Positions 39,435 to 62,086 of a DNA stretch of 64,000 nucleotides are shown here, piece by piece. Origin of the DNA: an uncultured Veillonellaceae bacterium (GTDB lineage Bacteria > Bacillota > Negativicutes > Selenomonadales > Selenomonadaceae). The notes under the pieces are model-generated. The model saw nothing but the letters and a program-made list of their open reading frames with translations, searched no databases and was not told where the DNA came from. Position 1 is the first letter of the stretch; each line of letters opens with the position of its first letter. The position numbers and the translations under genes were made by a program. The DNA lies in the NCBI GenBank assembly GCA_900314825.1, contig OMWS01000038.1, forward strand, positions 1,200 through 65,199. Reading direction: 5' to 3'.

Positions 39435-39471
39435 AAGTTTCTGCGGGCAAACGGAAGGATTAAGGATTATC

Positions 39472-44593: not shown

Positions 44594-45754
44594 ATGAAAA
44601 AATATTTTTTCGTGGGATTGGGGCTGGTGCTGGCTTTGACACTGCTGGTGGTTGCTTATGGCGCTTATCTGAATGAAAGGGGAGAAAGCCAGATTGCCCT
44701 GCGCATGGAGGAACGGCAAGCGGAGCTGATTGGTGAGAAAGCCGCAAGGAGAGCGTTTCATCCTCTGGTGAAGTTCTCTGCCGTCAATCTTTATACTGCC
44801 AGCATAGCGGATGCTGTGGCACTTACTGAGGGGCGGATTGTGGAGGCTTATGCTTCTGTCAACAGCTATGTTCACAAGGGTGATCTGCTTTTCAGGCTGG
44901 AAAATGATAACATCGCCCTTTCCATCCAGGAGGCTGAGGCGAGCATCATGAGCGCCAATGCTGAACTGGCCCGTGCCACCAACAATTATGACCGCTATAG
45001 CAAACTGCTGGAGTTTGATGCTGCCTCCAGCCAGCAGTTCGATGAAGCCAAGGCTGCCTATGTGGCGGCCCAGGCAAATTTGCAGGCGGCGGTAGCTAAG
45101 CGGGACATGCTGCTGGTAAATGAATCACGCTGCGAGGTCCGTGCACCTATCGATGGGACAGTGCGCATTATTTACCGACAGCCTGGAACCTACGTACCCA
45201 GTGGCACATCTCTGGCGCTTGTGGGGGATTATAACGAGCTTTATTTTTCCCATCAGGTCAGTGATGACAAGGCCCAAAGGTTGCAAGTGGGACAGGAGGC
45301 AGAGTTTATCTTCCCCGGCAGAGAGTTCAAGAATCTGGATGGGGCTCACGGAGACATGGGAACAGAGCAGGTCTTTCATGGTGTGCTGACGGAGATTGCC
45401 CCGCCCTTGGAGGTGCCGGGCGCAGCCCGCACCCTGCTCTGGCGGATAGATAATCCCTTGGGACTACTGACGCCCCAGACTTACGGCACGGCCTATTTGA
45501 AGCTGGTTCGGGGGGCAGAGGCTCTTTGTGTGCCCCTCTCCGCCCTTACGGACAAGACCAGGCAGACTGTTTTTGTCTACCGGGATGGAAAGCTTGAGCG
45601 CAGAGATGTTGTCACCGGCAGGGATGATGGGGATTATGTCGAGATACTTGGCGGGCTGGAGCCTGGGGAGATTGTCATTGTTTTTGGCACAGAGAATTTG
45701 CAGGATGGGCTAAAGGCAGAAGTAAAGCTGAGGGGTGAGCAGGATGTCAGATAA
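44594..45754 (+). CDS. HlyD/membrane-fusion family periplasmic adaptor
   Basis: N-terminal TM segment MKKYFFVGLGLVLALTLLVVAYG; lipoyl-like GDLLFRLEN; coiled-coil region; beta-barrel region CEVRAPIDGTV. ATG follows GAGGGAG. Confidence 0.75.
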   Translation: MKKYFFVGLGLVLALTLLVVAYGAYLNERGESQIALRMEERQAELIGEKAARRAFHPLVKFSAVNLYTASIADAVALTEGRIVEAYASVNSYVHKGDLLFRLENDNIALSIQEAEASIMSANAELARATNNYDRYSKLLEFDAASSQQFDEAKAAYVAAQANLQAAVAKRDMLLVNESRCEVRAPIDGTVRIIYRQPGTYVPSGTSLALVGDYNELYFSHQVSDDKAQRLQVGQEAEFIFPGREFKNLDGAHGDMGTEQVFHGVLTEIAPPLEVPGAARTLLWRIDNPLGLLTPQTYGTAYLKLVRGAEALCVPLSALTDKTRQTVFVYRDGKLERRDVVTGRDDGDYVEILGGLEPGEIVIVFGTENLQDGLKAEVKLRGEQDVR

Positions 45755-46721
45755 AGAAAAAAATCAGGCAGCAGGCAGTTTCTTCAGCCAGGCAGCCCTG
45801 GACAAGCTGCGTTCCCCGGAGAAACTGGACACCATGGTGCATATTACGGGGCCTATGGGCTGGATGGGGCTGGCCGCCGTCTGCATACTCTGCTTCTCCA
45901 TCGTCCTCTGGTCCATCTACGGTTCCTTTACAGAAAAGGCCGAGGGCATGGGGCTTATCATGGATGTCTCCGGGGTCAGGAGCGTTTCCCATGCTGCCTC
46001 AGGCCGCATTACGGACATTTATGTGAAAACCGGCAGCCATGTGCATGAGGGCCAGCTTATAGCCCATATGGAACAGCCGGAGCAGTCGGCGGATACCCGC
46101 ATGGCCCAGTACGGCACAGAACTGGCGGCCAACGACAGGGATGTGCAGTCCCGGGTCTACCAGTATGATGCCAAACGGCAGCAGCAGACAGCCAACGAGG
46201 ACATCTACTGCGAATATGACGGTATTGTGGACGAAGTCATGGCCTCTGAGGGTCAGATTCTTTCAGCAGGGGCTCCTATCTGTACGGTACGCCTGACCGA
46301 GGAGAGCAAAGACCTTTCAGGAATTTTCTATATTCCTGTGGACAAGGGCAAGCGGGTGGTGCCGGGCATGACTATCCAGCTGGCTCCCAATGGGGTGGAC
46401 GTGAGCCAGACCGGCAGCCTCCTGGGGGTAGTGGAGAGCGTCTCCCAGTATCCCATTTCCTCCGCCGGCATCGAAAAGGGCCTGGGCAATGCCCAGCTGG
46501 CCCAGTATGTGCTATCCAAAGACGGCGGGGCAGCGGTGGAGGTGAAATTCAGCCTGGTGAAGGATGCCTCCTCGGAATCCGGCTATCTATGGACTTCCGT
46601 GGTGGGTAAACATACGCCCATCACCCCGGGCAGCTACTGCACTGGGGCCGTAGTCATCGAGCGGAAGATGCCCATCGAGAAGGTATTTTACAAGATCAGC
46701 CAGTGGCTAAGGAGCAGGTAG
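45744..46721 (+). CDS. NHLM/Nif11-type bacteriocin secretion protein (HlyD-like)
   Basis: FFSQAALDKLRSPEKLDTMVHIT, a TM segment, then GRITDIYVKTGSHVHEGQLIA. It sits directly before the two ABC genes, the order recalled for the TIGR03794/96/97 trio. Confidence 0.7.
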   Translation: MSDKEKNQAAGSFFSQAALDKLRSPEKLDTMVHITGPMGWMGLAAVCILCFSIVLWSIYGSFTEKAEGMGLIMDVSGVRSVSHAASGRITDIYVKTGSHVHEGQLIAHMEQPEQSADTRMAQYGTELAANDRDVQSRVYQYDAKRQQQTANEDIYCEYDGIVDEVMASEGQILSAGAPICTVRLTEESKDLSGIFYIPVDKGKRVVPGMTIQLAPNGVDVSQTGSLLGVVESVSQYPISSAGIEKGLGNAQLAQYVLSKDGGAAVEVKFSLVKDASSESGYLWTSVVGKHTPITPGSYCTGAVVIERKMPIEKVFYKISQWLRSR

Positions 46722-46722
46722 C

Positions 46723-48948
46723 ATGGGGATAAAAGCATGGGAGACTTTGAAAAATAAATACTTTCCCCAGGGCCGCCGAGCCAAGACCCCCACAGTGCTC
46801 CAGATGGAGGCGGTGGAGTGCGGTGCGGCATCGCTTGCCATGGTGCTGGCCTATTACGGCAAATGGCTGCCTCTGGAGCGCTTGCGCCAGGAGTGCGGGG
46901 TTACCCGGGACGGCAGCAATGCCGCCAATATATTGAAGGCAGCCCGCAGGCTGGGCTGTGAGGCCAAGGGTAAGGCAGGAAGGGCCAAAGGCCTTCTGAA
47001 GCAGGATTTTCCCCTGATTCTTTTCTGGGAGTTCAACCATTTTGTGGTCATGGAAGGCTTCAAGGGAGAGACTGTTTTTTTGAACGACCCAGCTATGGGC
47101 AAGCGAAGTGTGCCCTGGCAGGATTTTATTTCCTCATACACTGGGGTGTATCTGCAGATTGCCCCCGGCCCTGATTTCAAGCGGGAGGGACACCCTTACA
47201 GCATTGCCAAGGCTGTGGCCTCAAAGCTCATGCAGGACAAGTGGGCGATGCTCTTTCTGTTGATTCTTGGCCTCTGCATGGTGTTGCCGGGACTGGCGGA
47301 ACCTGCCTTTAACCAGATTTTCATTGACGATATTTTTTCCATGAAGCATCCGGACTGGACCCAGTACCTGCTGCTGGCCATGGGCGGGGCGATTCTTCTG
47401 AACGGCATCATGACTGCCATGCGGGCCTCTGTCCTGCTGGGCTGGCAGAAGAAGCTGACCCTGGCGGATTCCTCCGCCTTCTTCTGGCATGTCCTGCGGC
47501 TGCCCATCACTTTTTTTCAGCAGCGGTTTGCCGGGGAGATTGCCTCCCGCATCCAGTTCAACGAGAGCAACGCAGATGTGCTCTCCGACCAGGCGGCAAC
47601 CTCCCTGCTGGACTGCCTGATTGCCATTTTCTACCTGTTGCTCCTGCTCTCCTACAGCGTGCCTCTTACCTTGATCGGCGTTTCTATCAGCGCCGTGAAT
47701 GTCTTTGTCTTTTTCTATATGCGGCGCAATATGACAGACATCATGATGCACATGCAGCAGGAAAAGGGCAAGGAGTACGGCACCCTCATGTCGGGACTGA
47801 TGATGATTGAGAGCATCAAGGCCAGCGGCACAGAGGGGGACTTCTTTGCCAAATGGGCAGGCTATCAGGCCAAAGGCCTCATGGCCATGCAGAAAATGCA
47901 GTTCTGGTCCCTGAAGGTGAAGCTGCTGCCCACTCTGCTGTCGGGGCTTACCAGCGCCATGGTCATGGCCGTGGGGGGCTTCTCTGTTATGGAAGGGGTC
48001 ATGACTGCCGGTATGTATATGGCGGTTTCCAATCTACTGCCCAAGTTTCAGGAACCTATGAACAAGCTGCTGGCTTTCGGCAATACGCTGCAAACCACAG
48101 AAATGCAGATGCGTCGCCTGGATGATGTGTGGCGCTATGGGATTGACAGGCTGAACTATCCTGAAAAGCCGGTCCCCATGGAAGAAGGGAGCCTACGTCT
48201 GACAGGACAGCTGGAGCTGAAGGACTTGAGCTTTGGCTACAATCCTCTGGAACCGCCCCTGCTGGAGCATTTTGACCTTACCCTGGCCCCCGGGCAGTGG
48301 GCGGCGGTGGTGGGTTCTTCCGGCAGCGGCAAGTCCACCCTGGCCAAGGTGGTGGCAGGGCTCTATGAGGAATGGTCAGGAGAGGTGCTGCTGGATGGCA
48401 AAAGGCGGCGGGAGTTTCCCAGGGAGGCCATCGTCGGCTCCATGGCCATCGTAGACCAGGACGTGTTTCAGATAACGGGAACTGTGGCAGAGAATATTTC
48501 CTTTTTCGACAAGTCTCTGCCCAAGGAGGACATCATGAGAGCAGCCCAGGATGCATGCATACATGAGGACATCCTGAAGCTGAACGGGGGCTATGAGGCC
48601 CAGGTGGCCGAGGGAGGGCTGAACTTCTCCGGCGGCCAGCGGCAGAGGATGGAAATCGCCCGGGCCCTGGCGGGGAATCCCTCCCTGTTGATTCTGGACG
48701 AGGCCACCAGTGCCATCGACCCATTGACGGAGCAGGTCATTCTGAAGAATATCCGCCGCAGAGGCTGCGCCTGCCTGCTGGTGGCCCACCGCCTTTCCAC
48801 CATTCGGGAGGCTGATGAGATCATCGTGCTGGAGTATGGCAAAATCGTGCAGCGGGGCACTCACCGGGAGCTTATAGCAGAGGATGGTCCTTACCGCCGT
48901 CTGGTGGAAGAGCGTGAGGCAGAGGAAGATACAGAGTCTCTGGACTAA
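46723..48948 (+). CDS. peptidase-C39-domain ABC transporter (PCAT; leader-cleaving exporter)
   Basis: C39 active-site region TVLQMEAVECGAASLAMVLAYYG; six-TM ABC core; Walker A GSSGSGKST; signature FSGGQRQR; Walker B LLILDEATSAID. Confidence 0.9.
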   Translation: MGIKAWETLKNKYFPQGRRAKTPTVLQMEAVECGAASLAMVLAYYGKWLPLERLRQECGVTRDGSNAANILKAARRLGCEAKGKAGRAKGLLKQDFPLILFWEFNHFVVMEGFKGETVFLNDPAMGKRSVPWQDFISSYTGVYLQIAPGPDFKREGHPYSIAKAVASKLMQDKWAMLFLLILGLCMVLPGLAEPAFNQIFIDDIFSMKHPDWTQYLLLAMGGAILLNGIMTAMRASVLLGWQKKLTLADSSAFFWHVLRLPITFFQQRFAGEIASRIQFNESNADVLSDQAATSLLDCLIAIFYLLLLLSYSVPLTLIGVSISAVNVFVFFYMRRNMTDIMMHMQQEKGKEYGTLMSGLMMIESIKASGTEGDFFAKWAGYQAKGLMAMQKMQFWSLKVKLLPTLLSGLTSAMVMAVGGFSVMEGVMTAGMYMAVSNLLPKFQEPMNKLLAFGNTLQTTEMQMRRLDDVWRYGIDRLNYPEKPVPMEEGSLRLTGQLELKDLSFGYNPLEPPLLEHFDLTLAPGQWAAVVGSSGSGKSTLAKVVAGLYEEWSGEVLLDGKRRREFPREAIVGSMAIVDQDVFQITGTVAENISFFDKSLPKEDIMRAAQDACIHEDILKLNGGYEAQVAEGGLNFSGGQRQRMEIARALAGNPSLLILDEATSAIDPLTEQVILKNIRRRGCACLLVAHRLSTIREADEIIVLEYGKIVQRGTHRELIAEDGPYRRLVEEREAEEDTESLD

Positions 48949-48978
48949 CCAAAGAGCCTTGAGGAGTTGAGGGTATAG

Positions 48979-51687
48979 ATGAAACTTTTAGCAGGTCAGC
49001 GCACGAAGCTCATGGAGGCGGGCAGGGCTCTTCTGGTGAAGCAGGGCAGGGTAGAGGCTTATGCCCTGATGGAGGAGGGGGGCCACCGTCTCTTCCTGAT
49101 GGAGCTGGAGCCGGGGGAAGCGGCGTTCCATTCTGCTGATGAATTCGGGGACATTACCATAGAGGTGTATGCCCTGGAGGATGCAGCGTTGGAGGAGCTG
49201 TCCCTGGCGGAAGAGCAGGCAGGGACATTAGTGCCCCTGATGCGTCACTGGTTCCAGGAGCTTATCTGCCTGCCCTGGCTGCGCCTGATGGCCGACCGGG
49301 GAGATGAATTCCTGAGAGCCTGGGTGGATGGCTCGGTACTGAGGCAGGCGGGGCAGCAGACAGAAAATCTGCTGGAGGAGTTTGAAGAAAACCAGGGTAT
49401 TTTTGCCATGCTGGCAGGGGTTCGCTTTGCTGCCCAGGATGAAAGGCTGGCTCGCCGCCTGATGGCCCGCAGGAGACATAAGCGCCGCTTGCTGGACGAG
49501 ACCGTGGCCAATCTCTTGGGGGAGGACTGGGTCTCGGTGTCCGGCAGTGGCCAGGGCAGCGCCAAACTGGAAGAGGCCGTCTTTCTGGTGCGGGCCGTGG
49601 CCCATCATCTGGGCATGCCCGAGGAAGACATTGCCCTGAACAAGGAGACGGTAGAAAAGCTGGATGCTTTGGGGGTGCTGCGCCGTCTGGTGGCCAAGGG
49701 CGGCATGGAGATGCGCCTGATAAAGCTGGAAAAGGGTTGGGAAGGCTGGGATTGCGGGGCCATGCTGGGGTATTTCGGCGAGAAGAAACAGCTGGCAGCC
49801 CTGCTGCCCGAATCACCTTCCAGCTACAAGCTGGTGACCAGGGAAAATATGGAGGGTGTGACCCTAACCTCCGAAATGGCCCATAGTGTTTCAGGAGATG
49901 CTTTCCTGGTCTATCCGGGACTGCCGGACAGAAAAATGGGACGGCTGGACTTCCTGCGCTTTATGGCGCGCCATACTTGGCAGACGGACTGGAAGGCCGT
50001 CCTTCTGGCAGGGCTCTTTATGGGGCTTATCCCCCTGCTCACGCCCATAGTCACGGAGACCATGTTCCAGGACCTCATTCCCATCCTGGACCGCAAGGGG
50101 CTGGCCACGGTGACCCAGGTGGTGCTGGTGGCGGGCTTTACCACAGCGGCGCTAACTACAGTGCGCGCCCTGGCTGTGTTGCGCCTGACAGCTATGGGGA
50201 ATCTGCGGGGGCAGGCGGCCCTTTTCGGGCGGCTATTGAAGCTGCCGCCGGGCTTTTTCCGCCGCTTCCAGTCGGGAGAGCTGGCGGAGAGAATGCAGGG
50301 ACTGGACAGGTCTGTCATGCTTCTTACCAGCGAGTCCGTGGGAGCGCTGCTCTCCTTTGCCTGTTCCTTCTGGAGCCTGGGGCTGATGTGCTATTACAGC
50401 ATGAAGCTTACGGGGATGGCCCTTTTGGTCTGGCTGGTCTACCTGGCCATTTCAATTTTCCTGCTCTACCGGCTGACCAGGGCCCAGCGGGATATGACCA
50501 CGGCCAGCAACAAGACCTCCGGCATTCTGGCCCAAATCTTCGCAGGCCTGGCCAAGTTCCGCACCAAGGGTTCAGAGGAACAGGCCTACCACCTCTGGGG
50601 ACAGCAGTTTGCCATTGAATTGGGCCATAATATCCGGGCGCGCCGCCTGAAGAATATCAGCACGGTCATAGCGGCCATGCAGCCCATGCTGCTGACACTT
50701 ATCCTTTACTATAATGGCCTGCTGGAGCTTGCCACTTCCCAGAGTGGCGGCGGGACTGCTGCCGAGGCACTGGGTCTAGGTGCCAAGCCCATGACGGCAG
50801 CCACCTTCATCGCCTTTCAGTCTGCTTTCACCGCTTTCAACACTTCTTTGGTGGCTATTATGCCCATTTTGGAAGGCATGTCTGTCATCAAGCCCTACTT
50901 GGATAATCTCCTGCCCATCTTGGAGGAGATGCCTGAGACCTCCGAGGAGAGGCAGGAAGCCGGCGTGCTTTCCGGGGCCATCGAGGTGAGGAATCTTACT
51001 TTCGGCTACGTGCCGGAGAGCAGGGTGCTGGATGATGTGAGTTTTCGCATCGCTGCAGGAGAGCAGGTGGCCATTGTGGGAAAATCCGGCTGCGGCAAGT
51101 CCACCCTGATTCGCCTGCTGCTGGGCTTTGAGATGCCCCGGCAGGGAGCCGTCTACTATGACGGCCAGGACCTTTCGGAGCTTTCCCTGCCCTCGGTGCG
51201 CTCCCAGATGGGAGTGGTGCTGCAGAATGGGCAGCTCATGAGCGGCGACATCCTGCACAACATTATCGGCACTAATAACCTTACTCTGGATGATGCCTGG
51301 GAGGCGGCAGAGGCGGCAGGCATTGCCGAAGATATCCGCCAGATGCCCATGCAGATGAACACCATCGTCAGCGAAGGCAGCACCAATATTTCCGGTGGGC
51401 AGCGCCAGCGCATCTTGATTGCCAGGGCCCTGGCATTGAAGCCTTCCATCATCGTCTGCGACGAGGCCACCAGCGCTTTGGATAACCGCACCCAGGCCAT
51501 TGTGACCAAGAGCCTGGACAAGCTCCATGCCACCCGCATCATCGTGGCTCACCGTCTGTCCACCATCCGTCATGCAGACAGGATTATCGTGCTGGACAAA
51601 GGCCGCATTGCCGAAACCGGCAGTTTCCAGGAACTGGTGGATAAGGGCGGACTCTTTGCCTCTTTCGTGAAGCGGCAGGTGGCCTGA
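48979..51687 (+). CDS. second ABC transporter of the NHLM-type export system (long N-terminal domain, no C39 Cys motif seen)
   Basis: ~330-aa N-terminal extension; TM domain; Walker A GKSGCGKST; ISGGQRQR; IIVCDEATSALD. Confidence 0.85.
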   Translation: MKLLAGQRTKLMEAGRALLVKQGRVEAYALMEEGGHRLFLMELEPGEAAFHSADEFGDITIEVYALEDAALEELSLAEEQAGTLVPLMRHWFQELICLPWLRLMADRGDEFLRAWVDGSVLRQAGQQTENLLEEFEENQGIFAMLAGVRFAAQDERLARRLMARRRHKRRLLDETVANLLGEDWVSVSGSGQGSAKLEEAVFLVRAVAHHLGMPEEDIALNKETVEKLDALGVLRRLVAKGGMEMRLIKLEKGWEGWDCGAMLGYFGEKKQLAALLPESPSSYKLVTRENMEGVTLTSEMAHSVSGDAFLVYPGLPDRKMGRLDFLRFMARHTWQTDWKAVLLAGLFMGLIPLLTPIVTETMFQDLIPILDRKGLATVTQVVLVAGFTTAALTTVRALAVLRLTAMGNLRGQAALFGRLLKLPPGFFRRFQSGELAERMQGLDRSVMLLTSESVGALLSFACSFWSLGLMCYYSMKLTGMALLVWLVYLAISIFLLYRLTRAQRDMTTASNKTSGILAQIFAGLAKFRTKGSEEQAYHLWGQQFAIELGHNIRARRLKNISTVIAAMQPMLLTLILYYNGLLELATSQSGGGTAAEALGLGAKPMTAATFIAFQSAFTAFNTSLVAIMPILEGMSVIKPYLDNLLPILEEMPETSEERQEAGVLSGAIEVRNLTFGYVPESRVLDDVSFRIAAGEQVAIVGKSGCGKSTLIRLLLGFEMPRQGAVYYDGQDLSELSLPSVRSQMGVVLQNGQLMSGDILHNIIGTNNLTLDDAWEAAEAAGIAEDIRQMPMQMNTIVSEGSTNISGGQRQRILIARALALKPSIIVCDEATSALDNRTQAIVTKSLDKLHATRIIVAHRLSTIRHADRIIVLDKGRIAETGSFQELVDKGGLFASFVKRQVA

Positions 51688-51708: not shown

Positions 51709-52203
51709 ATGACTGATTTTGCAAATATCTACAGCAAGTATTACAAGCGAATATATAACTACCTTTACGGCCAGTTCCTTCACCGCGAGATCGCCGAGGA
51801 TGTGGCTGGCAGTGTGTTTCTGGCGGCCATGGAAAATCTTGAGTGTCACGGGCCGGCAGAGGGGAAGGAAGCTCCCTGGCTCTTTGCCATGGCCCGGAAT
51901 ATGGCGGTGAATTACCGCCTGCAGGCCCGATGCCGCCACGAGGTCAGCGCCTGGGAGTTGCCGGAGAGGCCGGACAAGGACAGCGTACAGGAGCAGGGAA
52001 CCCTGGAGAGCCCTTCCTCCCTCCGTACTTGCCGTATTCTCGAAAAACTGACGGCAGAGGAGCGGGAGCTTCTCTCCCTGCGCTACGGCCTCTGCCTGAC
52101 TAATGAGGAAATCGGGCGGCTCCTGGGGACAAGCCCCAACGCCGTAAGTCACAAGTTCAGCCGTTTGCTGGCCAAATGCCGCCGGATTGACGAGAAAAAA
52201 TAA
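51709..52203 (+). CDS. ECF-type sigma-70 family factor
   Basis: 164 aa. Region-2-like YKRIYNYLYGQFLHREIAEDVAGSVFLAA and region-4 HTH LSLRYGLCLTNEEIGRLLGTSPNAVSHKFSRL. Confidence 0.75.
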   Translation: MTDFANIYSKYYKRIYNYLYGQFLHREIAEDVAGSVFLAAMENLECHGPAEGKEAPWLFAMARNMAVNYRLQARCRHEVSAWELPERPDKDSVQEQGTLESPSSLRTCRILEKLTAEERELLSLRYGLCLTNEEIGRLLGTSPNAVSHKFSRLLAKCRRIDEKK

Positions 52204-52355: not shown

Positions 52356-52604
52356 ATGAATGAGAACGTAAAGAAATTTTTGGAAGAAGCTGAAAAGAAC
52401 GAGAAATTGAAGGCGAAGCTTGCCGCACTGACCGACAAGGAGACTGCCGCAGAGAAGGCTGCCGCCATTGCGAAGGAGTACGGCTTTGACTTGAAGCCGG
52501 AGGATTTCCAGCCCAAGGGAGATGTGGACCTGTCCGATGAAGAGCTGACACGGGTCGCGGGTGGGTTTTATATGGCAATGGCTAATATTACACCGATATC
52601 TTAG
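52356..52604 (+). CDS. RiPP precursor C1 (Nif11-like leader); Cys-free core FYMAMANITPIS
   Basis: MNENVKKFLEEAEKNEKLKAKLAALTDKETAAEKAAAIAKEYGFDLKPEDF...DLSDEELTRVAGG. RBS AAAGGAGG. Confidence 0.8.
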   Translation: MNENVKKFLEEAEKNEKLKAKLAALTDKETAAEKAAAIAKEYGFDLKPEDFQPKGDVDLSDEELTRVAGGFYMAMANITPIS

Positions 52605-52724
52605 GCTGTACCTGCAAAATCATTGGAGAAAGACGTACTTAAAAAACGAATCACCTGGTTAGAAGATCGGGCGCGCTGCCAATTGTGGTGGCGTGCCTTA
52701 ACAATACCTCCCAGGGAGGGAAAA

Positions 52725-54179
52725 ATGTACTACAAATTAAAGAACAAATACAACCTGCGGGGGTGGGAAAAGCTGCCTTACGCCATCGTGGATACCGAGG
52801 CGCATAGGGCATCTTTCGTGGACAAAGGGACCTTCGCTGCGCTGGATTTGTGCAATGGGCGGATTGACCTTGCGCTCCCCCTTGTCCCGCAAAGCATCCG
52901 GGACAGCGTCAAGAAGCTGGAGGCACAGGGTATCGTTGCGCCCTGTGCCCCCGGCGAAGGCATCGCAGAGCGGCAGAAGTACCGCCGTTACCCCAATCGT
53001 TTTATGCAGTCTGCCCACTGGTCAATCACGGGACGATGCAACTGCAAGTGCCGGCACTGTTATCTCTCGGCGGCGGAGGGGCGTTACGGCGAGCTGTCCC
53101 ATGAGGACATTATGAAGATTGTGGGGGGCCTCGGCGAGAGCGGTGTGCTTTCTTGCTCCATCACCGGCGGCGAGGCATTGGTGCGGCCGGACTTCTGGGA
53201 GATCATCGATGGGCTGACGGCGCGGGGGATTGGCATTACCCAGATCTATTCCAATGGTCTCCTCGTAAACAATCGCCTGCTGGACGGCTTCGAGGAGCGG
53301 GGCCTGCACCCTGAGTTTAACATGAGCTTTGACGGCGTGGGGTATCATGACTGGCTGCGGGGGCTCAATGGGGCAGAGAAGGCTGTTCGCCGTGCCTTCG
53401 AGCTGTGCCGTGACCGGGGCTTTCCCACCGGCGCAGAAATGTGCCTGTGGAAAGAAAATGCCCACAGCCTGAGGGAAAGTGTCAACTATCTGGCCTCCGT
53501 GGGTTGCCGGGGTCTCAAGGTCAATCCCGTAGCCGATACGGGGGCATGGCACGAAGGCGGCTATGCCGAAAAACACGGCCTTGCCATGGCGGAGACCTTC
53601 GCTGTCTATTTGGGCTATCTCGACGACTTCTACCGCGATTTGCCGGAGATGGAGGTGCATCTGGGCGGTTTCTTCCTCGCGGACGGGCGGAAGCCGGATG
53701 TGTTCCATCTGCCTGTCATCCATGTATGCAAAGAGCCAGAGAAGGTGTGCCTGTGCTCTCATGCGCGTACAACTATGTATATTTCAGCTGAGGGACGGGC
53801 CTTGACCTGCATGCCCCTTTCCAACATGGACGAGTTCCAGCAAAGGTATCCCAAGATTCAGGAAATCGGTGTCCGGGAATGCCTGAAGGATTCTGCCTAT
53901 ATGGAACTGCTCGACACCTGCGCCACCGCAGTTTTGGAGCATAACGAAAAATGCAGGGATTGCGTCTACCGCCGTCTGTGCCTTGGTGGCTGCCGTGCGG
54001 CGGGCATCATGGTGCACCCCGGAGATATCCTTGCTCCCGACGAATCAAGCTGTGCAATCTTTTGCGGCGGCTGGCTGCAAAAGATTGAGAAAAAGGTAAA
54101 GGCATTGCGCTTCACAGCGGAGTGCGCGGAGCGGAAGCAGCTGCGGGAGCTTGGCCGGGAAGACGAGCTGGCCTGGTGA
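52725..54179 (+). CDS. radical SAM/SPASM peptide maturase (rSAM-2)
   Basis: ITGRCNCKCRHCY (CxxxCxxC), ITGGEALV, and SPASM CSHARTTMYISAEGRALTCMP...CRDCVYRRLCLGGCRAAG. ATG 52725 follows GGGAGGG. Confidence 0.9.
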   Translation: MYYKLKNKYNLRGWEKLPYAIVDTEAHRASFVDKGTFAALDLCNGRIDLALPLVPQSIRDSVKKLEAQGIVAPCAPGEGIAERQKYRRYPNRFMQSAHWSITGRCNCKCRHCYLSAAEGRYGELSHEDIMKIVGGLGESGVLSCSITGGEALVRPDFWEIIDGLTARGIGITQIYSNGLLVNNRLLDGFEERGLHPEFNMSFDGVGYHDWLRGLNGAEKAVRRAFELCRDRGFPTGAEMCLWKENAHSLRESVNYLASVGCRGLKVNPVADTGAWHEGGYAEKHGLAMAETFAVYLGYLDDFYRDLPEMEVHLGGFFLADGRKPDVFHLPVIHVCKEPEKVCLCSHARTTMYISAEGRALTCMPLSNMDEFQQRYPKIQEIGVRECLKDSAYMELLDTCATAVLEHNEKCRDCVYRRLCLGGCRAAGIMVHPGDILAPDESSCAIFCGGWLQKIEKKVKALRFTAECAERKQLRELGREDELAW

Positions 54180-54292: not shown

Positions 54293-54470
54293 CGAGTACA
54301 AGATGTCCCTCACTTCCATAAGTGGGGGCGGCAAATTACTAACAGGCGGCGAGTTAATATCTCCCGCCTCGTTGAAAGGCCAAGAGGAAGTTTTGCCTAC
54401 GGCAAAACTGGAACAATGGCCTTATAAGTAAGAGATCAATTATTAAGGCGTGGCGAAGGGAGGGGAGGTT

Positions 54471-54692
54471 GTGGACGAATATGAAGTCGAAATGGACAGG
54501 ATCTTTCGGGAAACTGACTTCGCCGCCGAAAATCACGACCTGAAGGAGCGGCTGTGGCAAAGGCTGCAGGAAAAGGCAACCCGGCGTCAGCAGGAGCCTT
54601 TGAAAAACATTGATGAGGACAGGGAGCTTTCGGATGAGGAGCTGACCCGCCTGGCGGCGGCAGGAAGTATTTTCACCGTGAAAAAAACTTAG
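54471..54692 (+). CDS. RiPP precursor C2 (different leader type); Cys-free C-terminus ...RLAAAG-SIFTVKKT
   Basis: RELSDEELTRLAAAG parallels DLSDEELTRVAGG of C1. GTG 54471 follows GGGAGGGGAGG (alternative GTG 54450). It lies directly upstream of rSAM-3. Confidence 0.6.
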   Translation: MDEYEVEMDRIFRETDFAAENHDLKERLWQRLQEKATRRQQEPLKNIDEDRELSDEELTRLAAAGSIFTVKKT

Positions 54693-54735
54693 TTGCATGT
54701 ACCCAGGGGAACATGTTAGGAGGGTATCCGAATAT

Positions 54736-56046
54736 ATGCTGAAATATTCCCGCTATAACCACATGGTAAAAATACCCGACGAGGATGCCTATGCACTGTT
54801 GAATTTCCGAACGGGGGCTTTTGCACGTTTGAGTCCCTTGCAGAAAGATTTGTTTGAGGTTGCTGCCGATTTAGATGAAAATAGCAGTAAGGTCAAGAAC
54901 TTTCGGCGGGGGGGCTTCCTGGTATCTTATGATGAGTTGCGGCACATGCGTACCCAGGCATATATGGCCAGTGGTTGGGGGCGTGTGCTGGGGTTGACTA
55001 TTTGTCCGACTATGGCTTGCAATTTTGCCTGTCCCTATTGCTTCGAGGAACAGCGGGGCGGCCGCATGAGCAAGGAAACGGAAGATGCCGTGGTAAAGTT
55101 CGCCGATCGTTTTCTGGTGCGTCTGCCTTGTCAGGACATTGGTGTTTCATGGTTCGGCGGCGAGCCGCTTCTTTGCCCGGACATCATCGAGAGCCTGTCC
55201 GAAAAGCTCATGGCACTGGCAGACAAAAGAAATTGCGGGTACCACGCGCGGCTGATCACCAACGGATGGTTCCTGACGCCGGAGATTGTCGCCATGCTGG
55301 AACGAGTGAATGTGATTGAGATGCAGATTACTCTGGACGGGCCGACACCGGAAACCAATGACCATCTGCGACGAGAAAAAAACGGCGGCTCCAGTTTTGC
55401 ACGTATCATGGAGAACTTGGAGAATCTGCATACAAAAAAGATCAAAGTGATGCTTCGTTGCAATTTGCATCGGGAAAACGCCGAGCATTTTGGGGCGTTG
55501 AAGGAGAAGGTGAACCTACTCGCCAAGAAAGCAGGGTTTCCCGTCCGTGTTTATTCGGCTATGATGGATGGATATGCAGGCATGTCCCACGAGATGCAGG
55601 AGGCATCCTTTAATACGAGTGAATTTCGCCGGATGGTTGAGGGCTGGGAAGATTTGCCCGCCCATGTCGATACCGATGCTTACTACCCCTACACCGTCTG
55701 CATGGCCCAGAATTTGACCGGGATCGGCATAGATGAGAACGGCGATCTGTATAAATGCTGGGAAGCGATAGGCAGGGGTGCAAAGGCTTTCGGGAATGTA
55801 CGCGATTTTGACATTCTTCAGGAGCCGGATGGAAATCCGGGCGCATGGGACGAGTATTTCGAGACTCTTTTCCCCGAAAACGACAAGGACTGCATGGAGT
55901 GCAAGGTTTTCCCGATTTGCAAGGGCGGCTGCCCCCACAAACGGCTGACGGGCAGGCGTACCTGCTTGCCCGTAAAAGCGGATCCCGATGGCTACGTTCT
56001 CCATCGTTATCGCATTTGGCAGGAAAAACGACAAAACAGACCATAG
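54736..56046 (+). CDS. radical SAM/SPASM peptide maturase (rSAM-3)
   Basis: CPTMACNFACPYCFE, WFGGEPLL, and SPASM CMAQNLTGIGIDENGDLYKCWE...CMECKVFPICKGGCPHK. N-terminus MLKYSRYNHMV. Confidence 0.9.
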   Translation: MLKYSRYNHMVKIPDEDAYALLNFRTGAFARLSPLQKDLFEVAADLDENSSKVKNFRRGGFLVSYDELRHMRTQAYMASGWGRVLGLTICPTMACNFACPYCFEEQRGGRMSKETEDAVVKFADRFLVRLPCQDIGVSWFGGEPLLCPDIIESLSEKLMALADKRNCGYHARLITNGWFLTPEIVAMLERVNVIEMQITLDGPTPETNDHLRREKNGGSSFARIMENLENLHTKKIKVMLRCNLHRENAEHFGALKEKVNLLAKKAGFPVRVYSAMMDGYAGMSHEMQEASFNTSEFRRMVEGWEDLPAHVDTDAYYPYTVCMAQNLTGIGIDENGDLYKCWEAIGRGAKAFGNVRDFDILQEPDGNPGAWDEYFETLFPENDKDCMECKVFPICKGGCPHKRLTGRRTCLPVKADPDGYVLHRYRIWQEKRQNRP

Positions 56047-56063: not shown

Positions 56064-57125
56064 ATGCGAGACGATTGCGGTATCTTAGGAGAGACGAGGC
56101 TTTCCCGCAATTTTCAAAGGTTGATGAGACGGGCGGCAGCGAATGGTCGAGACGAAGCACTTTTCGGTCAAAAGTACATTGCAGCAGCAAACGAGGTTGT
56201 CAAAAAAAGCTCCTTGCGCCACATGCCACGGACGAGTTTCTGCCTGGAGTTTCCTCTGACGGGCAAACCCTACATGGATATTTTCGTGAACCTCCAGTGC
56301 GGAAAAATGGAAGCTCCGGTAAAGTTTGAAGTCGGTGATGGTTTCGGGCTGGCATTTTTCGTCAATGCTTGCGCCGCGGATGAAACCCTGAAGGATTACC
56401 AGTTGTACTTTACCTTCGATCTCTCCGCTGACAGGCACATACCCAACGTCTATTTGTTGCCGCCCAACAGGAAAGGAAATATCTCGTATGTTCTCGCCAT
56501 GATGGATAAGTTGAATGCTCTTGAACGGAAAGAACAAACGGCAACGGTTCTGGGGAAAGTACCCTCGGGGTGGCAAATTTACTATGCCGGTTTCATGCAC
56601 ACAAGAACGGACGCCCCCCTGCGCCTGGGGTTTGTAGCCAATCCTGAATGTGTACGCGGGTACGCAAGGGACAGTTCCTTGCTGGCCCGGGATTTTAACG
56701 TCTTTTATCCCGGGGGGCTTACGGAGGTTCTTCAGGAACAGCTTTCTTTGCTGGCCGATGCGATCGAGGCGGGGGCGGAAATGGAGATACAGCTTGACCT
56801 GCTTCCCAATGGCAGCTTCGGCGACAATATCGCTGTTTCGCCTTCCCTTGGATTCAATTATGCCGATGTGCGGCGAGCCGATGAGACCATGGCCGGTGAC
56901 AGGGTAACGAGGATTATGGAGCTTTTTTCCCGTTGGGGTGTGTCAGACGATCGCTGGCGTCTCATGGGACAGGCTTGCTACGGAGTGGAGCGCATTGCCC
57001 AGGATGGGGACAATCGACGCCTGGTGGCGGATGTGGTGCAGCTAAGTGCTATCAAGGTGCGCTTTAACAGAAACGGCGCATCTCTCGCCAAGGGCTATCT
57101 TATCGCCACGTCGTGGGATTTATGA
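56064..57125 (+). CDS. P-family protein 1 (uncharacterised; five beta-hairpin units)
   Basis: FCLEFPLTGKPYMDIFVNL / LYFTFDLSADRHIPNVYLLPP / IYYAGFMHTRTDAPLRLGFV / EMEIQLDLLPNGSFGDNIAVS / LSAIKVRFNRNGASLAKGYLIA. ATG follows AAAGGGG. Confidence 0.75.
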   Translation: MRDDCGILGETRLSRNFQRLMRRAAANGRDEALFGQKYIAAANEVVKKSSLRHMPRTSFCLEFPLTGKPYMDIFVNLQCGKMEAPVKFEVGDGFGLAFFVNACAADETLKDYQLYFTFDLSADRHIPNVYLLPPNRKGNISYVLAMMDKLNALERKEQTATVLGKVPSGWQIYYAGFMHTRTDAPLRLGFVANPECVRGYARDSSLLARDFNVFYPGGLTEVLQEQLSLLADAIEAGAEMEIQLDLLPNGSFGDNIAVSPSLGFNYADVRRADETMAGDRVTRIMELFSRWGVSDDRWRLMGQACYGVERIAQDGDNRRLVADVVQLSAIKVRFNRNGASLAKGYLIATSWDL

Positions 57126-57180
57126 TTTCGGTTTTACCAGTCTGGCCGACAATTTGTAACGGAACAGGCTGTAAAATAAA

Positions 57181-57230
57181 TGGGACATCGCAAACCATTT
57201 TTGGAAATGTCCCAACCATATTATTTTATT
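57181..57230 (+). terminator. stem-loop with T-rich tail (possible internal terminator or attenuator)
   Basis: TGGGACAT-(18 nt)-ATGTCCCA followed by ACCATATTATTTTATT. Confidence 0.35.
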
Positions 57231-57253
57231 GTGTCCTAAAAGGAGGATGACAA

Positions 57254-57481
57254 ATGGATAACCAGTTCGATCCCCGTAAATTCTCGAAGGAGCAGCTTCA
57301 ACAGGCTGTGGCCTGCGAGACGCCGGAGGAACTCTTGGATCTTGCCAAGAAAAACGGCATAGAGATGACGCCGGAGCAAGCAAAGAAGTACCTCGCTGAG
57401 ATGGAGAACCTTGAGCTTGACCTCTCCGACGACCAGATGGAAGCGGTTGCCGGTGGTAGTTGCGCTTGGTTCTATCCCTGA
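57254..57481 (+). CDS. RiPP precursor D1; core SCAWFYP
   Basis: ...KEQLQQAVACETPEELLDLAKKNGIEMTPEQAKKYLAEMENLELDLSDDQMEAVAGG. RBS AAAGGAGG. Confidence 0.8.
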   Translation: MDNQFDPRKFSKEQLQQAVACETPEELLDLAKKNGIEMTPEQAKKYLAEMENLELDLSDDQMEAVAGGSCAWFYP

Positions 57482-57514
57482 TAGGAAAATGAAAAAAGAG
57501 AGGAGAAACATGAT

Positions 57515-57793
57515 ATGGCAAACAAATTTGATTGGAAATCTCTTTCAGATGAGCAGCGGCGGGAGCTTTTGAAGAAAGCCGCTGCTTGCGAAACGCCGGA
57601 AGAGCTCATGGCTCTCGCCAAGGAGCAGGGGTTGGAAATGACGGAGGAACAGGCAAAAAATAAACTTGAGGAACTGGAAAACCTTGAGATCGATCTCTCC
57701 GATGAGCAGCTCAAAGCTGCGGCCGGCGGTTTTAGCTGTCACAATGGCCAGGGGCTGTGCCTGTCCGATTCGGGTGAATGGTTTGGTTGCTGA
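57515..57793 (+). CDS. RiPP precursor D2; core FSCHNGQGLCLSDSGEWFGC
   Basis: ...LLKKAAACETPEELMALAKEQGLEMTEEQAKNKLEELENLEIDLSDEQLKAAAGG. Confidence 0.8.
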   Translation: MANKFDWKSLSDEQRRELLKKAAACETPEELMALAKEQGLEMTEEQAKNKLEELENLEIDLSDEQLKAAAGGFSCHNGQGLCLSDSGEWFGC

Positions 57794-57891
57794 CGTTTTC
57801 CGATAATGGTATAGCGCCTCGATCTGGGTCGTCTTTGTTGCTTTGGATGATTGCTGACACCGACGGCTGCGGTCTTGGCAGTTGCATCGTT

Positions 57892-57931
57892 TTGCGGAGT
57901 GCTTTTGCAGTGCTCCGCAAGACTTGTCTAT
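57892..57931 (+). promoter_or_regulatory. stem-loop plus third copy of CTTGTCTAT
   Basis: TTGCGGAG-TGCttttGCAgtg-CTCCGCAA contains GGAGTGC-TTTT-GCAGTGC (compare 52214-52236), followed by CTTGTCTAT at 57923-57931, 72 nt before the P2 start. Confidence 0.4.
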
Positions 57932-58002
57932 TGCTATGAAATGGAATTGCGTAGTACAAGCCGTTGCTTCGCATGGAAATTTATGGCAGAGGGGGCTATC
58001 GA

Positions 58003-59103
58003 ATGGGCAACATTTTATCCTTGCCGGATATCGTGCAGGATTTTCGCCGCATTTATCAAAAAGCGGCGGCAGAGGGGCGCGAGGCAAGGCTTTTTGGGGA
58101 GGAAACTCTTGAAAAAGCATGCGCTGTCCTGCGGTGCGGTGCCATAAAAGATGCAAGGGAGGCGGCGGGCTTCTACTTCGAGTTTCCCCTGTCGGGCACG
58201 CCCTGCATGGATCTGTTGCTTCAATATACCTGTGACGCATTTCCTTCCCCCGTTAAATTCGCGGAAGGGGATGGCTTTGGCTTGCAGAACTTTTTCGATG
58301 ACTGCGCCGGCGATGAAGGCCTTATGGGGTATGGATGTGGCTTCTCCTTCGATCTTTCCCGTGAGACCTCCGTTGACAACATTGGACTTCCCGGCATTTA
58401 TCTTGTACCGCCCCCCTCGCGTGCTAATGTAGATTATGTTCCTTTGATGCTGAAACGGCTTGGAAAAGCGGATTGTATTCCCCAGGTAATGGGTGCTTTT
58501 GCTGCTGCGCCGCCGAGATGGCGTCCTTATTATGCGGGGTGCATGGCAGGGCGGGTCGGCGGGCCGGTGAGGCTTGGCTTTTTCCTGCCGAGGGAAAGTC
58601 AGGCGTATTATTCCACACATCCCCTCGGATTGGCTGAGGAAATCGAGCTATACGGAGGACATAACCTTTTGTCGGAAGAAAAGGACAAGTTTTCCTATCT
58701 CATCCAAAACGGCGGTGTGTGGGATTTGCAGTTTGACCTTTGTCCCGATGGTACCTTTGCTGATGCATTGGGCGTTACGCTTGACATGGGAGTTGGCGGT
58801 GCCGATCCACGTAACTCCGAGGAATTCATGATGAAAGGCAAGGCCGGGCAAATCATGAGGTGTCTGGAAAGCTGGGGGCTGGCAGATTCCCGATGGCACG
58901 AGATGGGCAGAGCCTGTTACGGTGTCCTTCGCATGGTGCGTGAAAACGGGCGGTGGCGTGCCGTAGGTGATACGGTGCGGCTGAATACTGTCAAGGTGCG
59001 CTTCAGGGAAGGGCGGGCCTATCTTGCCAAGGGTTACCTTTTTGCGCAATCATACTGTATTTCGAAGAATATGAATAATTCGTCAGAGCCTGAGTTGAAA
59101 TAG
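58003..59103 (+). CDS. P-family protein 2
   Basis: FYFEFPLSGTPCMDLLLQY / CGFSFDLSRE..LPGIYLVPP / PYYAGCMAGRVGGPVRLGFFL / VWDLQFDLCPDGTFADALGVT / LNTVKVRFREGRAYLAKGYLFA. Confidence 0.75.
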   Translation: MGNILSLPDIVQDFRRIYQKAAAEGREARLFGEETLEKACAVLRCGAIKDAREAAGFYFEFPLSGTPCMDLLLQYTCDAFPSPVKFAEGDGFGLQNFFDDCAGDEGLMGYGCGFSFDLSRETSVDNIGLPGIYLVPPPSRANVDYVPLMLKRLGKADCIPQVMGAFAAAPPRWRPYYAGCMAGRVGGPVRLGFFLPRESQAYYSTHPLGLAEEIELYGGHNLLSEEKDKFSYLIQNGGVWDLQFDLCPDGTFADALGVTLDMGVGGADPRNSEEFMMKGKAGQIMRCLESWGLADSRWHEMGRACYGVLRMVRENGRWRAVGDTVRLNTVKVRFREGRAYLAKGYLFAQSYCISKNMNNSSEPELK

Positions 59104-59126
59104 AGTTTGTAGAAGGCGGTGGTCAA

Positions 59127-60152
59127 ATGTTACCGGCGGAGACAGTATTTGACGCTCTCATGGATCGTGCGGCAAATGAAGTAACGATGAAATCGGTGTT
59201 CGGGTCACTGGGTGAACAGAGGGCCTTGCTTCACGAAAAACTTTGCGGTCATGGGTTCAGCCAGATTTTTTTGGAAATCCCCCTCGACGGGGAGGCTGGA
59301 TTTGACCTGCACATCATCCATGATGCCGAAGATATTCGGCGTGGCACTTATGAAGAAAATTTGTATGGTAATCGCGGTTCACTCTTTGCCTGGTATGCTG
59401 GCGAACCTTCGTGCGGCGATGGGCTGGATGTGGTGTATGATCTGCGGGAAGATAAAGAGGCTTCTCCAATGGTCTATCTCAAGATGTCAGATGATACGCC
59501 GGATTTCGATGGTTTTTTCCGTGAGACGGGAGATGAGGGGGCAGGCAGAAGGTTTCATGCGCTGACAAAGTCTCTTCCCTCCGGCTGGCATCCTTGGTAC
59601 ACGGGGGTGCATATGAAGCGGAAAGGGAAACCGTTGCGCATTGGAAGCGGCCTGACTGATTTTGCAAAGAGGCGTTACGCAGGCAATCCGCGCTTTTTGG
59701 CCGATGACTTGAAAGCCTTGGGGTTTACTGCCTGGCTTTCCCCCATGATGATAGACAAGCTCCGTGAGTTGTTTGCTTTTCCGTGGCCGGTGGATGTCCA
59801 ACTTGATTTGCTGGATGACGGTTCCGTGGGGGATGTACTGGGGATCAGTCTTTGCACGGGAAACATGGGGCGGGATGCGCTGCGTGCTTCCCTTGAGCAT
59901 GGAGACTTGCAGGAGCTTATGTTGCTCTTGGAGAGTTACGGCGTTTCGGATGCCAGGTGGAAAAAACTGGGAAATACTGTATTCCAAGTTTTGGCTCTGC
60001 TTCATTCCGATGATGGGAATAAATGCCGATATATACTCTCGGGAAATCTCGGCTTTGTTAAAGTGCGATTCCAAGGGACAGGTGCATTGGCTCTGGATGC
60101 CAAAGTATACCTTAACCTGAGGGCAGTTAGATTCGGTAAGGATGATGGTTGA
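59127..60152 (+). CDS. P-family protein 3
   Basis: IFLEIPLDGEAGFDLHIIH / LDVVYDLREDKEASPMVYLKM / PWYTGVHMKRKGKPLRIGSG / PVDVQLDLLDDGSVGDVLGIS / LGFVKVRFQGTGALALDAKVYLNL. Confidence 0.75.
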   Translation: MLPAETVFDALMDRAANEVTMKSVFGSLGEQRALLHEKLCGHGFSQIFLEIPLDGEAGFDLHIIHDAEDIRRGTYEENLYGNRGSLFAWYAGEPSCGDGLDVVYDLREDKEASPMVYLKMSDDTPDFDGFFRETGDEGAGRRFHALTKSLPSGWHPWYTGVHMKRKGKPLRIGSGLTDFAKRRYAGNPRFLADDLKALGFTAWLSPMMIDKLRELFAFPWPVDVQLDLLDDGSVGDVLGISLCTGNMGRDALRASLEHGDLQELMLLLESYGVSDARWKKLGNTVFQVLALLHSDDGNKCRYILSGNLGFVKVRFQGTGALALDAKVYLNLRAVRFGKDDG

Positions 60153-61849: not shown

Positions 61850-62086
61850 ATGGGAAACATCGACAAAAGCAAACTCACCGAGGCGCAGATACAGAAAGCA
61901 ATGGCATGCAGCAGCGTTGAGGAACTGATGAAAGTGGCCAAGGAAGAGGGCTATGAGCTTACCGAGGACGAGGCCAAAGCGTATTTTGCAGAGATGGAGG
62001 ACTTTGAACTGGACGGTGACAAGTTGAAAGATGTGGCGGGCGGCGGTTTTGCGGGTAGCCAGTGCTATGCCAAAACTGGCTGCTGA
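61850..62086 (+). CDS. RiPP precursor E1; core GFAGSQCYAKTGC
   Basis: MGNIDKSKLTEAQIQKAMACSSVEELMKVAKEEGYELTEDEAKAYFAEMEDFELDGDKLKDVAGG. Confidence 0.8.
   Translation: MGNIDKSKLTEAQIQKAMACSSVEELMKVAKEEGYELTEDEAKAYFAEMEDFELDGDKLKDVAGGGFAGSQCYAKTGC

Follow-up and report, generated by a model that had tools for sequence, protein, structure and literature searches.

What do three related, uncharacterized proteins do in the midst of a peptide modification locus? The question is raised by a 64,000-nucleotide (nt) stretch of contig OMWS01000038.1 from an uncultured Selenomonadaceae bacterium (hereafter, the window), which contains a large multiprecursor locus for ribosomally synthesized and posttranslationally modified peptides (RiPPs). 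The proteins, designated P1, P2, and P3, are encoded among genes for radical S-adenosylmethionine (rSAM) maturases and for peptide precursors with Nif11-type leaders that end in a double glycine (GG). We conclude that they very probably adopt the prenyltransferase barrel (PT-barrel) fold, also known as alpha-beta-beta-alpha (ABBA), and that they are probably peptide prenyltransferases of a new branch of this fold, acting on the GG-cleaved precursors of the cluster.

P1, P2, and P3 are paralogs

The three genes are open reading frames (ORFs) on the + strand, at the positions given in the preliminary description of this DNA: P1 at 56064 to 57125 (353 amino acids [aa]), P2 at 58003 to 59103 (366 aa), and P3 at 59127 to 60152 (341 aa). 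Good ribosome-binding sites lie upstream of the ATG start codons of P1 (AAAGGGG) and P2 (GAGGGGG); the mechanically delimited ORF of P2 opens earlier, with a TTG at 57964. P1 starts 17 nt past the end of the rSAM gene at 54697 to 56046, 23 nt separate P2 from P3, and the last 11 nt of P3 are shared with the rSAM gene at 60142. Identity amounts to 36% between P1 and P2 (351 residues; E = 2e-78) and to 28% between P2 and P3 (E = 1e-20). These values are far above chance, so the proposed paralogy is real, and P1, P2, and P3 are true paralogs. A profile of the family matched P1 and P3 with E values of 7e-89 and 6e-94, respectively. The family tree separates an alpha clade, with P1- and P2-like proteins, from a beta clade with P3-like proteins, and genes of the two clades usually stand side by side. 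The P2 region matches a Selenomonas ruminantium metagenome-assembled genome (MAG) at 100% identity.

A search of 5.8 billion proteins retrieved 40 relatives, none of them annotated. When 1.84 billion cluster representatives were searched exhaustively with a profile, 292 of them proved to belong to the family, nearly all of which are stand-alone proteins of 320 to 380 aa, mostly from rumen and gut anaerobes.

The P2 model has the PT-barrel fold

P2 was modeled with AlphaFold2 from an alignment of 38 sequences. The resulting model has a mean predicted local distance difference test (pLDDT) score of 91.6, with values of at least 90 at 309 of the 366 residues, and a predicted template modeling score of 0.90; the five models obtained agree with one another (pLDDT, 90.6 to 91.6). 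Its ten main strands form five hairpins with helices in between. The five strand-turn-strand signatures that had been picked out by eye correspond one to one to these beta-hairpins, as assigned by DSSP: FYFEF..MDLLLQY (strands at residues 55 to 62 and 70 to 76), CGFSFDLS..GIYLV (111 to 117 and 131 to 135), YYAGC..VRLGFF (174 to 180 and 189 to 194), WDLQFDL..ADALGVT (239 to 246 and 252 to 260), and VKVRF..LAKGYLFA (317 to 335 and 338 to 352).

The PT-barrel has been defined as five alpha-alpha-beta-beta repeats that build a ten-stranded antiparallel barrel ringed by helices, with the active center in the lumen, and its occurrence has been described as restricted to secondary-metabolism prenyltransferases (PMC3227686). 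The P2 model shows the five repeats and ten strands of this definition, and when it was compared with the PDB by Foldseek, ranks 1 to 41 were all occupied by PT-barrel/ABBA prenyltransferases. These matches span several distinct prenyltransferase families and include CymD (E = 4.3e-6), DMATS1, AmbP1, 6-DMATS, FamD1, MpnD (template modeling [TM] score, 0.53), TleC, FunA, FgaPT2, and CdpNPT, whereas the best match to any other kind of protein had a probability of 0.08. Thus, the suggestion of an ABBA fold, made from sequence patterns together with a proposal to model the proteins and search with Foldseek, was borne out by that search, and a PT-barrel fold of the P1-P3 family is predicted with high confidence. 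The proteins also look soluble, with no hydrophobic run of at least 12 residues. As in ABBA enzymes, a [ND]DxxD motif is lacking in P1 and P2, and the one present in P3 is not conserved. The P family is a previously unnamed, sequence-orphan branch of this fold.

Near-invariant residues may form a diphosphate-binding site

Conservation was assessed in an alignment of 103 diverse members with a mean identity of 22%, using the numbering of P2. Eleven positions are nearly invariant: E60 (99%), P62 (97%), D70 (98%), D117 (99%), R184 (99%), R190 (97%), D295 (99%), R297 (99%), K331 (99%), K343 (99%), and Y345 (100%). Conservation is less strict at R/K333 (90%), D245 (88%), Y177 (79%), and Q243 (74%). 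Most of the conserved residues lie on predicted barrel strands, and three pairs (Q243-x-D245, K331-x-R333, and K343-x-Y345) are spaced i/i+2, so the two members of each pair share one face of a strand. The full conserved set is present in each paralog of all loci examined, P1 and P3 included, and therefore no P copy looks degenerate.

Lining the barrel lumen of ABBA enzymes, basic residues neutralize the diphosphate and tyrosines hydrogen-bond it; NphB adds a Mg2+ ion held by Asp62 (PMC7973389). The six conserved basic residues of the P family, together with the tyrosine and several carboxylates, would fit a diphosphate site of the ABBA type.

A distant homolog is fused to an rSAM-like module

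The window encodes a further protein of interest (36752 to 38605, + strand), a fusion of 617 aa in which a distant PT-barrel homolog (residues ∼1 to 295) is joined to an rSAM-like half-barrel and a Cys-rich SPASM domain. The preliminary description had the N terminus of this 36752 protein sharing the P-family hairpins, a relationship that only sensitive methods recover: BLASTP found nothing, the 38-sequence profile gave an E value of 0.27, and hhalign of A2 against A3 gave 0.073, while the 103-sequence profile found the protein at E = 6.5e-5. When the P family and the 36752 family were compared by hhalign, the probability reached 97% (E = 1.1e-10 over 201 columns), with P2 residues 107 to 349 paired to residues 72 to 293 of the fusion protein in an alignment that covers the R..R, D-L-x-x-x-G, RW, K-x-N, and A-K-x-Y-L patterns. 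The AlphaFold2 model of the fusion (pLDDT, 81.6) places five hairpins within residues 47 to 293, followed by alternating strands and helices and a C-terminal Cys-rich region. Foldseek matched its C-terminal half to PqqE (1.7e-10) and SuiB (7e-10), and the model also to FgaPT2 (1.9e-4).

The SPASM domain was recognized with an E value of 5.5e-4 and its cysteines are present, but no CxxxCxxC motif occurs in the whole protein, and the C-terminal half is therefore a pseudo-rSAM module. Pseudo-rSAM/SPASM proteins of GG-leader systems (TIGR04150 and TIGR04347) have the same arrangement, a half-barrel without CxxxCxxC followed by a Cys-rich SPASM region; the match of the 36752 protein to TIGR04150 is marginal (E = 0.07). 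We know of no described pseudo-rSAM protein with an N-terminal PT-barrel domain. Selenomonas, Schwartzia, and Acidaminococcaceae have more than 200 relatives of the fusion, all unannotated. Such a fusion is an argument for shared substrates of barrel and rSAM-type modules.

The P family recurs in RiPP loci

The genomic context of the family was surveyed in ∼14 distinct loci (numbered with the prefix L below); scans with the narrow alignment gave 7 loci in genomes and 12 in metagenomes, mostly short. RiPP hallmarks, i.e., Nif11/GG precursors, rSAM maturases, and C39 transporters, stand beside P genes in ∼12 of the 14. The neighborhood check that had been proposed for the family thus places it in RiPP contexts and not mostly outside them. 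Almost everywhere, P genes come in sets, of two (L001, L002-4, L009, and L014-18), three (the window and L022-24), four (L006, L007, L019, and L020), or five (L008).

A common operon reads two transporters, rSAM, P, P, precursor A (..GG followed by RDCGWYYD), precursor B (..GG followed by FSCHNGQGLCLTDADEWF), P, and P. The operon with the RDCGWYYD core is common to MAGs labeled Clostridiales, Lachnospiraceae, and Eggerthellaceae, and the cassette of the window is the same operon less one P gene. Counterparts of precursor A with the core RDCGWYYD or KDCGWYYD occupy the same operon position in L006, L007, L008, L019, and L031, and in these same five loci the near-identical core-B counterpart FSCHNGQGLCLTDADEWF is encoded directly upstream of a P2/P3-type pair. 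In L013-L016, a P gene with an rSAM neighbor is accompanied by a small precursor. L012 (434 to 17106) carries a single P gene with three YcaO genes, four rSAM genes, a long Nif11-like precursor, and a C39 transporter, a content implying that the barrel family has been recruited to YcaO-type pathways too. A different setting is found on Succiniclasticum-type contigs (L002-L004 and L009, ∼9500 to 12100), where an alpha/beta P pair lies right behind an ArsR-type (HTH_5) regulator, with a DUF1847 gene on its 3′ side.

Locus L005, from S. ruminantium MAG RUG12626, is 97.7 to 99.5% identical to the 52- to 62-kb region of the window over the aligning parts. L005 has an extra precursor with the core GECGIISAMGRHWRKCGCVAAGIGQ and, right after its 61850-type precursor, a 344-aa homolog of the 36752 N-domain that stands alone, ahead of STAS, kinase, and SpoIIE genes (the differences lie at 3678 to 3965 and 14200 to 15234 of L005). 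These differences reflect either strain variation or an assembly join.

An isopentenyl-diphosphate isomerase flanks several P clusters

A type-1 isopentenyl-diphosphate isomerase gene flanks P clusters in three locus types, each time in another position or orientation. In L006, it lies 113 nt past the last P gene (12180 to 12800) and scores 155.7 bits with NF002995 (cutoff, 127) and 117.9 bits with TIGR02150 (cutoff, 105.8). Its ortholog in L007 (11638 to 12222) is on the - strand, with the last P gene on one side and, on the other, the SpoIIE phosphatase of the cluster's conserved regulatory set, and that of L022 (646 to 1164, - strand) marks the upstream edge of the L022-24 cluster, in which both architecture and cores differ. 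All of these isomerases score above the NCBIfam equivalog cutoffs. The only known role of the type-1 enzyme is the conversion of isopentenyl diphosphate (IPP) to dimethylallyl diphosphate (DMAPP). The flanking isomerase is independent, albeit indirect, support for prenyl chemistry of the P family.

The peptide cluster of the window

The genes of the peptide cluster, its regulators included, are on the + strand. Between P1 and P2 lie two precursor genes, A (57254 to 57481) and B (57515 to 57793). Precursor A has a Nif11-type leader ending in ..AVAGG (TIGR03798 leader_Nif11, E = 1.2e-7) and the core SCAWFYP; precursor B has a leader of the same type ending in ..AAAGG (TIGR03798, E = 3.6e-7) and the core FSCHNGQGLCLSDSGEWFGC. 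Four rSAM/SPASM maturases are encoded in the window, at 34177, 52623, 54697, and 60142. The one immediately 5′ of P1 (54697 to 56046) has a SPASM domain and its best NCBIfam matches are rSAM_Clo7bot (3e-60) and rSAM_vs_C_rich (1.5e-55); all its matches are below the equivalog cutoffs, and it is thus assigned to the class of peptide maturases and to no named family. The one immediately 3′ of P3 (60142 to 61773) is CefB-like (NCBIfam, 8e-36) and also has a SPASM domain. It is followed by a precursor gene (61850 to 62086) that specifies a Nif11-type leader with ..DVAGG (TIGR03798, E = 1.6e-7) and the core GFAGSQCYAKTGC. Upstream of the P1 neighborhood are a precursor with the core FYMAMANITPIS (52356 to 52604), an rSAM/SPASM-like gene (52623 to 54179), and a small precursor-like ORF (54450 to 54692) with ..LAAAG followed by SIFTVKKT.

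Farther upstream, six or seven Nif11-leader precursors form an array (33005 to 36559) interrupted by the rSAM/SPASM maturase at 34177 to 35709. Their leaders are almost identical (MANINKNELTKEQIEKAMACETA...) and their cores unrelated, and a truncated precursor copy lies at ∼36461 to 36559, just 5′ of the 36752 gene; the array looks like a diversifying precursor cassette. Each core peptide of the cluster contains an aromatic residue, as had been pointed out, but this observation weighs little because most peptides of 8 to 40 residues contain one. Export and cleavage genes occupy 44531 to 51687 and encode two HlyD-type adaptors and two ABC transporters (Pfam ABC_tran, ABC_membrane, and HlyD), namely a C39-peptidase ABC transporter at 46723 to 48948 (Pfam Peptidase_C39, 8.5e-31) and a second transporter at 48979 to 51687. 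No PatA/G-type gene was found among the ORFs of 32 to 64 kb, although not all of these ORFs were scanned individually.

Regulatory genes accompany the cluster. An extracytoplasmic function (ECF)-type sigma factor (51709 to 52203; TIGR02937, 7.5e-21) heads the P-containing operon, a layout shared with L020, and partner-switching regulators at 38527 to 41661 comprise a STAS antagonist, an HATPase_c_2 kinase, and a dCache-HAMP-SpoIIE phosphatase (Pfam). The same STAS/kinase/SpoIIE trio stands beside P-family clusters in L001 (2701 to 5959), L005 (15292 to 20508), L007 (112 to 924 and 12482 to 14311), and L020 (12367 to 15376), i.e., in Selenomonadaceae and one Lachnospiraceae MAG, often along with an ECF sigma factor. 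This arrangement suggests that P-family clusters are under the control of an extracellular signal, perhaps their own peptide.

Two further features of the window deserve mention. Three mobile-element-type genes lie 5′ of the peptide locus (26605 to 28134, 28659 to 29609, and 29960 to 31066): one encodes an IscB-like protein (RRXRR and HNH, with a PLMP-type N terminus), one a PD-(D/E)XK family transposase, and one TnpB (OrfB_IS605 and Cas12f-like TNB). A FAD_oxidored-family gene (42529 to 44013) is split by a single in-frame stop codon at 43048 to 43050 and is probably a pseudogene or the product of a sequencing error; a selenocysteine codon was considered and rejected, since the stop is TAA.

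Proposed function and alternatives

From the paralogy, fold, conservation pattern, and genomic association described above, we infer a pathway with its donor, acceptor, order of steps, and catalysis itself. Precursors would be made, notably those with core A and core B, and the flanking rSAM/SPASM enzymes would cross-link the Cys-containing cores. Each barrel would bind a prenyl diphosphate, probably DMAPP, through R184, R190, R297, K331, R/K333, K343, and Y345, and the carboxylates D70, D117, and D245 may hold Mg2+. The donor would be ionized in the barrel lumen and the prenyl group transferred to a Trp, Tyr, His, or Cys side chain, with E60 as the candidate base or acceptor anchor. The P proteins would act on leader-bearing, probably rSAM-cross-linked precursors, ahead of cleavage after GG and export of the product, both of which would be performed by the C39-peptidase ABC transporter. 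Paralogs of the alpha and beta clades may differ in site or peptide specificity or may work as a pair.

A number of observations weigh against this proposal. At the sequence level, P1-P3 matched no Pfam or NCBIfam model at an E value of ≤1, and a Pfam scan of the 103 aligned family members likewise gave none at this threshold, PTase_Orf2 and Trp_DMAT included. Comparison of the family with PDB sequences by phmmer and profile hmmsearch returned chance TonB matches only (E ∼0.2), and hhalign of the P-family profile with the NphB sequence (checked against 1zb6, 307/307) was not significant (E = 0.61). The likeness of the P2 model to its best PDB matches is at the level of the fold only (TM, 0.43 to 0.53; root mean square deviation [rmsd], 7 to 10 Å), and P2 thus shares a fold with known prenyltransferases and no close kinship. 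Y345 is the sole invariant tyrosine, a full "tyrosine shield" not being evident, and the five conserved carboxylates are more than is typical of ABBA enzymes. Prenyltransferases do not usually come in sets of three to five paralogs when there are just two, very short cores to modify. The P pair of L002-4 and L009 has no rSAM gene near it and a precursor sought nearby was not found, which makes this the lone non-RiPP-like context. Finally, neither an IPP isomerase nor another isoprenoid gene was found in the window, and the isomerases of the three locus types are 80 to 83% identical to one another, so these loci are not fully independent and their hosts may be related.

Some of these features are what PT-barrel enzymes with other chemistry might display, whether they used another anionic or diphosphate donor or cyclized or cross-linked the peptide. 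The family is as distant from known prenyltransferases as sequence methods measure, its conserved set is rich in carboxylates (E60, D70, D117, D245, and D295) and has a single invariant tyrosine, the window is devoid of isoprenoid genes, and many paralogs per short peptide hint at something beyond simple decoration. However, every structurally characterized PT-barrel protein among the Foldseek matches is a prenyltransferase (PMC3227686), and the isomerase that makes DMAPP is present at clusters in three locus types; we regard other chemistry as an unlikely alternative. Its improbability is exceeded by that of a noncatalytic role, in which the barrel would replace a RiPP recognition element domain, holding the leader or core and presenting it to the neighboring rSAM enzyme. 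The main support for such a role comes from the 36752 fusion, together with P genes that abut or overlap rSAM genes, both in the window (P3 by 11 nt and P1 at 17 nt) and, similarly, in L012-L016, L019, and L022. Yet ten charged or tyrosine residues that are near-invariant across phyla look more like a site for catalysis or a ligand than like a surface for peptide docking, P pairs occur without an rSAM gene in reach (L002-4 and L017/18), and the association with IPP isomerase would be left unexplained.

The fold could in principle be an artifact, AlphaFold2 having produced a plausible alpha/beta repeat that Foldseek matched by repeat geometry alone. The TM scores near the 0.5 boundary, the large rmsd, and the mere 38 sequences of the model alignment would allow for this, but the high pLDDT values and mutual agreement of the five models, the 41 consecutive top matches from several prenyltransferase families with nothing else above a probability of 0.1, and the independent model of the very distant 36752 N-domain, again with five hairpins and a match to FgaPT2, make it highly improbable. 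A more speculative proposal, which we consider unlikely, is a new functional class on the PT-barrel, with alpha/beta barrel pairs acting with rSAM/SPASM enzymes or as subunits of them. The 36752 fusion would then be the "Rosetta stone" of the barrel-rSAM partnership. The products of this partnership would be very short Cys/Trp/Tyr peptides (such as SCAWFYP/RDCGWYYD) with multiple modifications, serving as pheromones read by the co-conserved dCache-SpoIIE/STAS/anti-sigma switch and the ECF sigma factor, and the barrels would either prenylate rSAM-cross-linked peptides at several sites or carry out a reaction other than prenyl transfer. Collectively, we favor peptide prenylation by P1-P3 as the probable function.

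Relation to known prenyltransferases and RiPP pathways

The preliminary description likened the P proteins to ABBA enzymes in general and to the cyanobactin F-type enzymes among them. The first part of this comparison stands, but the F-type enzymes are not the nearest. The best structural matches of P2 are bacterial and fungal indole prenyltransferases of the DMATS/CymD group (CymD, 6os5; DMATS1, 8db1; MpnD, 4yl7; TleC, 4yzl; FgaPT2, 3i4x), with E values of 4e-6 to 1e-3 and TM scores of 0.43 to 0.53. As is predicted for the P family, these are soluble five-repeat barrels with basic residues and tyrosines on the strands, and their bacterial members have 340 to 370 aa. They differ from it in that no sequence relationship was detected (Pfam Trp_DMAT being unmatched), their four-tyrosine shield is not obviously conserved in the P family, and their substrates are free Trp or small indoles rather than leader-bearing peptides. 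Enzymes of the NphB/CloQ type, including AmbP1 (5z45; E = 1e-4) and FamD1 (5ynv; E = 4e-4), have the fold in common with P2 and act on small aromatic molecules; judging from strand order and not from superposition, the Mg2+-binding D62 of NphB appears to lie on strand 2 of hairpin 1, as does D70 of P2.

The cyanobactin F-type enzymes (PagF, LimF, and DciF; TIGR04445, IPR031037) are Mg2+-dependent, have the ABBA fold, and prenylate side chains of ribosomal peptides. LimF (8je4) and DciF (9lwv) appear only at Foldseek ranks 43 to 48 (E ∼0.03; TM, 0.25 to 0.42), far below the indole prenyltransferases and AmbP1/FamD1, and P1-P3 did not match the cyanobactin prenyltransferase model (TIGR04445/IPR031037) in the NCBIfam scan at an E value of ≤1. 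Moreover, in the PatA/PatG protease pathways of cyanobacteria the leader is gone before the prenyltransferase acts, whereas the P cluster combines rSAM maturases, a C39 transporter, and GG leaders in strict anaerobes.

The nearest precedent for the logic of the P cluster is MppC of Moorena producens, a leader-dependent alpha-beta-beta-alpha prenyltransferase that acts on a lanthipeptide precursor with a Nif11-type leader (PMC12715784) and thus places an ABBA enzyme in a Nif11-leader RiPP cluster. Unlike the P proteins, MppC is a single-copy member of the cyanobactin prenyltransferase sequence family, and its partner is a LanM lanthionine synthetase instead of an rSAM enzyme. This precedent makes the P-cluster logic less unprecedented than first proposed. 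The combination of rSAM cross-linking with a multicopy PT-like family had been called a new RiPP logic, and its novelty appears to hold for the pairing with rSAM enzymes: a literature search, with most subscription journals outside its reach, found no paper on the P family or on an rSAM-plus-ABBA RiPP pathway. A possible functional analogy is offered by ComQ and PalQ of Bacillus and Paenibacillus, whose targets are pheromones, very short peptides that these Firmicutes secrete and that are prenylated on Trp (PMC10853753); core A and its counterparts have 7 to 8 residues and a conserved Trp. In fold, ComQ/PalQ enzymes are unrelated to the P family: theirs is all-helical, of the isoprenoid-synthase type, and carries a FARM motif.

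Implications

The enzyme fold and peptide prenylation as such were known already. Apparently new are the sequence family, its multicopy alpha/beta organization, its pairing and fusion with rSAM modules, and its home in rumen anaerobes. So far, the PT-barrel has been tied to the secondary metabolism of actinomycetes, fungi, and cyanobacteria. If the P proteins are active, the fold reaches strictly anaerobic bacteria of the rumen and gut (Selenomonadaceae, Acidaminococcaceae, Lachnospiraceae, and Eggerthellaceae) and is joined to rSAM-based RiPP pathways. There is also an annotation gap: Pfam and NCBIfam miss an entire branch of a fold that has been well studied, and only structure prediction makes it visible.

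Peptide prenyltransferases are wanted as tools for late-stage peptide lipidation. With ∼290 diverse members, arranged in sets of two to five paralogs, each set encoded next to its own short, defined substrates, the P family would offer many new specificities. As a lead toward new enzymes for peptide lipidation and a new RiPP subtype, it is solid and easy to test. For the organism itself, an abundant rumen inhabitant, the cluster predicts a new type of peptide, short, rSAM cross-linked, and prenylated.

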